Below, one piece after another: positions 62,107-63,336 of a stretch of 64,000 nt of DNA; position 1 is the stretch's first letter; every line of letters begins with the position of its first letter. The notes beneath the pieces are model-generated. The model saw only the letters and a program-made list of their open reading frames with translations. It made no database searches and was not told where the DNA came from. The stretch is from positions 106,206,001-106,270,000 of the forward strand of contig OZ024742.1 of NCBI GenBank assembly GCA_964016885.1, written 5' to 3'. The position numbers and the translations under genes were made by a program. Source of the stretch: Eledone cirrhosa (lineage: Eukaryota).

Positions 62107-63336
62107 CGAAGGAAATGTGGTAAGGAACCAGGTGGACCATAACGCACCAAAGTACTCAATACTTGAGGTAGTAGAGTGGGTAATAGGAACCAGTAAGACC
62201 CCGACAGCTGAGCTCAAGCCGTTTCGACGGCTAATTCTGGACTAAATGAAAATTTATCCTGGTATTTAAATAGCCGATCTTCTCAAGGGGTAATTCCATA
62301 TATGGTCAAAGTGATTGTCAAAAATCAGTAGTAATTCTGTGGTTGCAAATTAGTAGGGGAGATGGTGGCTAAACCTGCCAGTAGGAGAAAGAGGGGAGGG
62401 GGTGGAGTAGACCCAATCAAGCGTTGGTAGTGCCAGCTACAGCTGGGCATGAGGTCAAAGAAGATACAGGGGAGGGGGAGGGGGAGGAAGTCGGAACGGT
62501 AGGTAGAACAATGGGGGGTAGAAATATATAGGAAAGAAAAAATACTGAGAGTGAAGAAAAGCAAATAAGTGTAAAGAAAAAAGTAAAGTAAATTAAATTC
62601 TACGACCTAGGTCTTTAGCTATTGTTAGGCTAGAATAAAATAAATAAAGAAAGAAAGAAGTAAAGAAATAAATAAATAAAGAAATAACGAAATAAGTAAA
62701 AGAACTAGGTGGGACAGAATAGGCAAGGACCCTTTTAAGAGGTATAAGTACGTAAATGATACGGTGACGGGTCAACAAAATGGGCCAAAATACTAAAGAG
62801 ACTACCACGAAATAAACAATAAAGGTTTCCATCCCGGGCACAATGCCAGCAACGACCCAGTGCAGCAAAGTGAACTTGTACGAGATAATAATTCTGAGTC
62901 CCGAGAAAAATATATACTAATGCTAACTCTAAAAGATCTAAAACAAGCTACATGAAAGTTCGTACGAAATAAAGGTAGAATACGGAAAAATAAATTCAGA
63001 ATCCACCCCGCCCAAAAGAAAAGCGAAGAAAGAAATACTGAAACGAAAAAATAAGGCATAAGTGCCACTAAGAAATATAGAGGGCACAGAGAATAGTGGG
63101 AGCGGTCGGAAAGAGGGGGCAAGTATCCGGGGTCTAAGCCAACTGCTATAAAGGGCGGAGTCCGCCAAATCTATCATAGACTAGGGGAGGGGGTGGGGGT
63201 ACTAAGGCTACAAGGGGCCAAAGGGCAGCCTCGGGTGGGCGAGAAAAGACGCCGACAAAGGAGAAGAGCTGGGGTAGAAGGACTAAGGAGAGAGGGGGGG
63301 GGGGGAAATAAAGGAAGCGATAAAAGAATACAAAGA

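Follow-up and report, generated by a model that had tools for sequence, protein, structure and literature searches.

Copy ends of a Penelope-like element in Eledone cirrhosa suggest in vivo cleavage by a U3-A8 hammerhead ribozyme and a promoter within its loop II

A 64,000-nt stretch of the Eledone cirrhosa (Eukaryota) genome (GenBank assembly GCA_964016885.1, contig OZ024742.1, positions 106,206,001 to 106,270,000, forward strand; hereafter referred to as the window) carries a type I hammerhead ribozyme motif on its minus strand, at 62198..62291, within a truncated copy of a Penelope-like retrotransposon. The locus raises the question of whether this motif, with its U3-A8 core, cuts RNA in vivo, and what its very long loop II is for. 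The best overall explanation, in our view, is that of a retrotransposon hammerhead which is likely to be self-cleaving in vivo and whose long loop II is likely to double as a core promoter. The evidence comes mainly from the positions at which genomic copies of the element begin.

The hammerhead motif and its host element

The motif shows a complete three-helix fold. Helix I pairs ACCCC (62291-62287) with GGGGU (62202-62198) and precedes the core U3 U4 G5 A6 G7 A8 A9 (62280..62286), which is separated from helix II by the G10.1-C11.1 pair (62279/62226). The helix II strands CGGCUA and UAGCCG close around a loop II of 37 nt (62234..62270), in line with the roughly 40 nt given in a preliminary description of this DNA; a distal hairpin can also be folded in this loop, and folding together with subfamily comparison predicts a core-promoter site there. 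The remaining part (62204..62225), delimited by folding and alignment of copies, comprises the GAAA element (62225-62222) and helix III, in which the four CGGC/GCUG pairs and A15.1-U16.1 add up to five pairs and close loop III, UUGAGCUCA, with its palindrome UGAGCUCA. Cleavage is predicted at GUC/G, between 62203 and 62202 (GUC, 62205-62203). All positions relative to the cut are numbered from C17 (62203, minus strand), which is set to 0.

All features for which a complete hammerhead had been proposed are present at these coordinates. Minimum-energy folding returns the three-way structure, with pair probabilities of 0.61-0.98, and a hammerhead descriptor matched once in the window and never in 100 order-2 Markov simulations of it. 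The conserved core (positions 3-9, G12 A13 A14, A15.1-U16.1, H17) is present as its U3-A8 variant, the predicted fold has three helices with an open helix I, as type I requires, and folding also predicts an extended helix I with a bulge. Two results weigh against the identification: the folding energy of the motif is no better than that of shuffled sequences (z 0.17), and an Rfam search with the motif alone gave no match at E ≤ 10. An Rfam scan of the whole window yielded 227 matches, of which the 150 listed were all below the gathering score and mostly on microsatellites. A minimal, dimer-only hammerhead was ruled out, as helix III has five pairs rather than none or one to two; the palindromic loop III would still allow dimer formation. 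The palindrome itself was confirmed for the window copy, but only its GAGCUC is retained across the subfamilies of the element (A, A', At, B, B', C, D and E).

Conservation supports the view that the motif, as a type I hammerhead, is under constraint. When ten positions of the search pattern were left open, the first 100 of 4,670 matches had U4 in 100, G5 in 98, A6 in 100, A9 in 100 and G10.1 in 98, while position 3 was U in 78 and C in 21 and position 8 was A in 98; at N7 all four letters occur among family copies. Across 18 chosen, mutually related copies, 85.7% of 414 helix cells were paired, and helix II had double-sided changes at four pairs among these related rows. Taken with arms that begin exactly at the predicted cut (see below), these patterns bear out the earlier proposal that the motif was under selection. 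An A-U pair had also been assigned to 10.2-11.2; these positions are unpaired in 16 of the 18 aligned copies. U3-G7-A8 occurs in 2,177 of 2,217 subfamily-A copies.

Directly upstream of helix I, a further palindrome, CCATATATGG (62296-62305, minus strand), is kept in most subfamilies, and the untranslated region (UTR) further upstream diverges to 70-80% among them. This palindrome is a possible dimer or protein site.

The motif lies in a 5'-truncated element copy of 1.24 kb inside (TA)n (62103..63340, minus strand), which consists of 3'UTR, hammerhead and tail and lacks an open reading frame (ORF). Aligned over 1,246 columns with an intact tandem unit (its positions 2502-3733), it shows 96.2% identity; the ORF of that unit ends about 70 nt further upstream. 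The copy belongs to subfamily A, which by the comparisons made here is the youngest because it has the lowest mean pairwise difference: 1.2% (56 copies) as against 2.5-3.1% in A' and At, 8-9% in E, B' and B, 14% in D and 17% in C, all in targeted samples.

The parent element is a unit of 3.54 kb (tandem units of 3,542-3,543 bp among the fetched copies), arranged in tandem and inverted units inside (TA)n. Each unit has one ORF, encoding 719 amino acids from its ATG, with telomerase-like reverse transcriptase (RT) motifs plus, at the C terminus, a GIY-YIG-type domain (YIG), whose assignment as an endonuclease rests on motifs. The predicted protein model reached a pLDDT of 86.8 and its top five fold-search matches were telomerases; Pfam and PDB sequence searches with the ORF protein found nothing. 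The alignment contains RWR, SDKT, CNCPDRSIC (CxCX5C), CNLC (CxxC) and CKH (CxH). Because RW[KR], DKT, CxCX5C, CxxC and CxH are the motifs that define the Hydra clade in Craig et al. 2021 (PMC8557442), the element is almost certainly a Hydra-clade Penelope-like retrotransposon, as judged from protein motifs and the (TA)n target. Like other endonuclease-containing Penelope-like elements, it combines a telomerase-like RT and GIY-YIG ORF with a tandem/inverted structure and an optional tail. The Neptune and Nematis clades were rejected, the protein having DKT and CxCX5C instead of DKG and a CX2-5CxxC linker, and Naiad as well as Neptune were rejected on domain order and motifs. The closest protein relatives share 58% and 55% identity, and one named homologue comes from Argonauta. 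One family with 36-37% identity, on three near-identical contigs, has a canonical CUGAGGA core, that is C3-G8, and serves as outgroup. Contigs of four other organisms carry parts of the repeat and added nothing on the core.

Two arrays of element sequence were observed elsewhere in the genome. About 65 head-to-tail copies of a 55-bp ORF piece (L032:2672-6257; G000:C1 near 91.49 Mb) lie where a tandem array of five units inverts, which suggests repeated template slippage within one insertion. Seven tandem 299-bp units holding the tail-to-ORF junction (G000:C2:356030076-356031897) could be a retrozyme-like array derived from the present element.

Copy ends at the predicted cut and within loop II

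Copy numbers were obtained by exact-pattern searches of the 3.0-Gb source genome. A 23-mer reaching from stem III to stem I, downstream of the core, has 10,989 exact matches, five times as many as a core 20-mer located 75 nt upstream (2,177). Most of the short copies carrying the 23-mer, here called arms, are paired head to head as palindromes in (TA)n, in which a short arm meets a long one at a junction that varies, and the long tail is found on either arm. Ends were mapped for 100 consecutive arms listed among the 10,989 matches. The 3' ends fall at +16..+23 in 58 and at +94..+100 in 40, with two running into the ORF; the tail between the two end points (+20 and +100; 62103..62183, minus strand) would thus be bounded by two internal reverse-transcription start sites, as judged from arm-end positions. 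The 5' ends lie at -33..-44 in 76, at -12..-29 in 11 and beyond -100 in 13, and none of the 100 ends between -45 and -100.

A second class of 5' ends coincides with the predicted cut. Arms starting exactly at +1 gave 178 matches, against 13 at -3 and 13 at +5. Inspection identified true ends at 25 of 30 loci at +1 and at 11/13 and about 10/13 loci at the controls, leaving after correction about 150 starts at +1 versus about 10 at each of the two controls, a peak of about 14-fold. In ten of the 30 inspected loci both arms begin at exactly +1, and nine of these ten are joined by one extra base. We consider it probable that these ends are a fossil of hammerhead cleavage in vivo at GUC/G.

Some observations on these ends tell against this interpretation. 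For starts at 0, -1 and +2 the counts come from 349 incidental arms; among these arms, which are not fully independent, +1 occurs eight times, 0 never, -1 four times, and -2 and +2 twice each. Arms starting at +1 with the tails of mainly C3·A8 subfamilies gave 234 matches (14 of 30 inspected were true), and for tails seen with C3 alone (13/13), 8 of 15 selected loci were true +1 ends, one of them double-ended. These count against cleavage because a 3-8 mismatch should weaken it. Either C3·A8 still cuts, or such RNAs are cut in trans, or RT stalls at helix III.

The predominant 5' end class lies within loop II. The modal end is the A or G of a TTAGTC motif (62240..62245, minus strand) which is retained across subfamilies, and which is initiator-like by its resemblance to the consensus; its A at 62243 (-40) is the candidate transcription start. 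An octamer at the top of helix II (62265..62272, minus strand) is TATA-like, again by comparison with the consensus, and its spacing to the initiator-like A makes it a predicted promoter element: 29 nt in A and 30-31 nt in other subfamilies (comparison of A, B, D and E).

The base preceding A(-40), where the template has T at -41, is G in 898 matches, C in 684 and A in 108. G thus accounts for 53% at the -40 site, compared with 22 of the first 100 of 944 at the control position -37. At 20 of 30 G loci the partner arm is unable to explain the base, and several have G on both arms; at C loci the partner arm explains it in 19 of 30 and not in 11, four of which show the partner's own G. We read the extra G as a copied cap from a start at A(-40), and the end positions and the untemplated base together indicate that transcription probably starts inside loop II. 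Sequencing depth drops more than 20-fold over 62238-62250 in two runs, which is weak evidence, as one of the runs is RAD-seq, with many reads ending at an AATT site, and the other gives contig depth.

Several points speak against the proposed start. Subfamily C has no TATA-like letters at the octamer position. Among the 177 copies that continue from tail into ORF, two of 30 start near the proposed site (-37 and -24) and 18 of 30 extend at least 198 nt upstream, ten of these in three tandem arrays, so that the full-length template would not simply be the -40 transcript. A strong-stop-like jump test for a cap-G trace in long copies (G at -41) was negative, with 6 matches at 3 places versus 1 for the control, and arms joined through TA are of no help in deciding (G 8, C 10, A 2 in the first 100). 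Finally, both the loop-II start and in vivo cleavage, likely as they appear, are read from genomic DNA, none of the sequencing runs listed being recorded as RNA. The short RNAs may derive mainly from promoter-bearing fragments such as the window copy.

In arms that begin at -39 or +1 at four loci, L268 (G000:C1:25028600-25030300), L442, L452 and L505, internal ORF sequence is attached with nothing in between, which suggests jumps between templates after run-off.

An RNA starting at -40 carries only part of the ribozyme. When alone it is predicted to misfold; together with a separate 5' half it would form the hammerhead again, the split halves cofolding into the full structure at -29.3 kcal/mol versus -4.3 and -14.8 kcal/mol. 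Pairing is also possible between the helix II 3' strand and the helix III 5' strand (AGCCGU/ACGGCU; 62218-62232, minus strand), giving a hairpin that is predicted to form when the 5' half of the hammerhead is absent and that is a possible switch.

The same ends might instead mark points at which RT stalls or switches template on RNA structure, namely at the distal helix II hairpin (-36..-44) and the helix III base (+1), with the additional G as a general untemplated addition. Folding does predict a helix base at both sites, ends of the -40 class scatter over 12 nt, few full-length copies start at -40, and +1 ends occur in C3·A8-linked lineages. Stalling does not, however, account for a G excess that is specific to -40, nor for a distal hairpin that varies between subfamilies while TTAGTY and the end point are retained, nor for the ten double-ended +1 loci with their single joining bases. 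We regard it as unlikely, although it is the strongest competitor of a loop-II start combined with cleavage.

The 3-8 pair across subfamilies and a proposed mechanism

Genome-wide patterns across subfamilies gave 1,545 matches for a C3·A8 core, 61 for U3·G8 and 13 for C3-G8; U3-A8, at about 4,600 by subtraction, is the commonest state. Position 8 is nearly always A and position 3 is U or C. The Watson-Crick pair is present in the window copy and in subfamily A and is not retained in D, B' and E, with U3·G8 in 26 of 39 copies of subfamily D; the first 100 of 318 copies of subfamily C comprised 86 U3-A8, seven U3·G8, four C3-G8 and three other cores. Raw DNA reads from another sample had C3 in 58 of 349 and no listed change at A8. 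As whole subfamilies carry unpaired states while the core stays constrained, the 3-8 pair is, on this comparison, tolerant rather than strict, with C-G, U·G, U-A and C·A all in use among subfamilies. The U3-A8 swap is not new: such a core has already been reported in nature (PMC3088659), and is known from Penelope-like hammerheads, including the Cercyon element of Schistosoma mansoni, a species with about 1,300 matches (PMC4209133); taken alone, the swap is ordinary.

A tree of 148 of 195 rows (27 were left out for short or junction-containing flanks and 20 near-identical A rows were thinned), with positions 3, 7 and 8 masked, rows chosen by core type and a midpoint root, had strong support on 11 of 142 branches and orders the subfamilies loosely. 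It suggests, with weak support, a ladder C - D - B - B'/E - A along which the pair would have passed through U·G, U-A, C·A and U-A.

This drift could mean that the motif is no longer a ribozyme and is kept as promoter DNA and a protein-binding RNA structure. Master lineages have indeed spread with C3·A8 (1,545 copies) and U3·G8 (the 26 of 39 in subfamily D), and in an anole relative, according to Frangieh et al. 2024 (PMC11167929), insertion in vitro is unimpaired by hammerhead mutants, cleavage not being needed. Yet the catalytic positions do not vary, whereas any of the four letters can stand at N7, position 3 is a pyrimidine and position 8 a purine in every subfamily majority, and the +1 peak stands about 14-fold above its controls, which makes a purely structural role improbable. 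Still less probable is a reading in which a few master palindromes gave rise to the short ones as a non-autonomous family of their own, with shared ends due to descent and not to repeated run-off: one junction, joining -40 to -34, is seen in 14 or more of 30 C-class loci, but junctions are otherwise heterogeneous, identical end points are found in subfamilies A, At, E, B and C, and the long tail occurs on either arm. The preliminary description's strictly compensatory U3-A8 core in a 1.2-kb parent of family A, although U3-A8 predominates and C3-G8 is found in the outgroup, can practically be dismissed, being contradicted by intact 3.54-kb ORF-bearing copies, of which the window copy is a truncated 3'UTR, and by the unpaired subfamilies.

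The preferred reading, cleavage in vivo with a start inside loop II, suggests the following course. The TATA-like box and the initiator-like TTAGTC would direct a capped RNA from A(-40) that carries only the 3' half of the hammerhead. The element protein would nick (TA)n and prime reverse transcription internally, at +20 or +100; internal priming has been demonstrated in vitro for the anole relative (PMC11167929). RT would then reach the capped end and run off it, the cap being copied as an additional G, and pairs of short cDNAs would join head to head, giving rise to the thousands of palindromes of 200-250 bp. The complete ribozyme, present in the 3' repeat or reassembled from two halves, would cut some RNAs, and the 3' product would yield the +1 arms. 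We advance more tentatively, at somewhat less than even odds, the full version of this picture: that the transcript begins as half a hammerhead completed solely by the other half near the RNA's far end, and that the genome preserves traces of the cap, as the extra G at -41, and of cutting in vivo, as the +1 ends, while the 3-8 pair changed by way of C-G, U·G, U-A and C·A with the cut kept.

Neighboring copies, known systems and significance

The seven shorter relatives described earlier in the window are all present, and by subfamily scoring none is best matched by subfamily A, their best scores being against B, E, At or D copies; they belong to older subfamilies, which also argues against the window copy as their parent. 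Palindromic mini-insertions lie at 61852..62060 (subfamily B; an additional G precedes A(-40) at the start of its direct arm), 61002..61187 (subfamily B), 57296..57494 (subfamily At), 42077..42269 (B type; both arms end in G+A(-40) with one base between) and 16091..16277 (B type). A single arm of subfamily E type at 57911..58013 (plus strand) begins exactly at the predicted cut (+1), and an old, rearranged arm at 39867..39995 (minus strand) best matches subfamily D.

Unrelated features of the window include an exon at 12289-12957 (plus strand) with a laminin EGF domain (PF00053, E 1.2e-7), which looks netrin-like. A mariner-type transposase fragment (PF17906) lies at 30682-31068 (minus strand), a tandem array of a 24-bp unit yielding long repetitive open frames at 34562-36118, a LINE RT fragment (PF00078) at 40682-41794, a MITE-like 185-bp inverted repeat around a (TA)n center at 57640-57824, and a zf-RVT-bearing LINE end (PF13966) at 60300-60947 (minus strand).

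Hydra-clade elements such as Hydra-1_Obim (PMC8557442) have in common with the present element the C-terminal endonuclease, RW[KR], DKT, CxCX5C, CxxC/CxH, the (TA)n target and a type I hammerhead near the 3' end. They are generally under 3 kb, compared with 3.54 kb including a 1.1-kb 3'UTR here, and the Hydra rows of File S2 have CUGANGA cores in 26 of 26 with loops II of 3-10 nt, in contrast to U3-A8 and 37 nt; the Hydra-1_Obim protein, compared by eye, is different. Metazoan Penelope-like hammerheads (Cervera and De la Pena 2014, PMC4209133) are likewise type I with a long helix II and palindromic loop III, but the present motif has four helix III pairs plus A15.1-U16.1, folds as a monomer and has a 37-nt loop II. 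The same paper notes dual hammerhead motifs on opposite strands and had no evidence that cleavage occurs in vivo.

PAc Poseidon of Anolis (PMC11167929) resembles our element in two internal reverse-transcription start sites bounding the tail, an AT-rich target and a hammerhead directly before the ORF. Its tail is 30-40 nt, as opposed to 80 nt, and no RNA reads ending at the cut were found in that study, whereas here genomic copies begin at the cut. Terminal-repeat promoters, inverted junctions and palindromes are shared with Penelope of Drosophila virilis (PMC2377424) and Adineta Pen2a (PMC3846280), for the latter of which TATA and initiator-like motifs were proposed; the accessible parts of these two papers do not place the start inside the ribozyme, where we would put it, in loop II. 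Palindromes are attributed in PMC3846280 to self-priming on an antisense template, in contrast to the head-to-head joining of run-off cDNAs proposed here. Non-LTR retrozymes (bioRxiv 10.64898/2026.07.22.740005) are also non-coding terminal-repeat derivatives, but form direct tandem repeats with a full hammerhead per unit, unlike the dispersed head-to-head palindromes without the catalytic 5' half seen here. The window copy itself was rejected as a non-LTR retrozyme, being single, with short relatives that are inverted and lack the core.

The open-access literature yielded no description of a start site inside a Penelope-like hammerhead or of genomic copies beginning at the cut, although supplements or repeat databases may hold the family. 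What is new is the evidence from mapped copy ends, both for a promoter located in the ribozyme and for in vivo cleavage. It bears on whether Penelope-like hammerheads cut in vivo, and to what purpose, in that about 150 genomic copies from one subfamily group begin at the predicted cut. A census of copy ends is applicable to any genome with a high-copy family, and the subfamily ladder amounts to a natural mutagenesis series for the 3-8 pair. A start in loop II, if true, would explain both the long loop and the head-to-head palindromes, through run-off from two internal priming sites and with no need for an antisense template.
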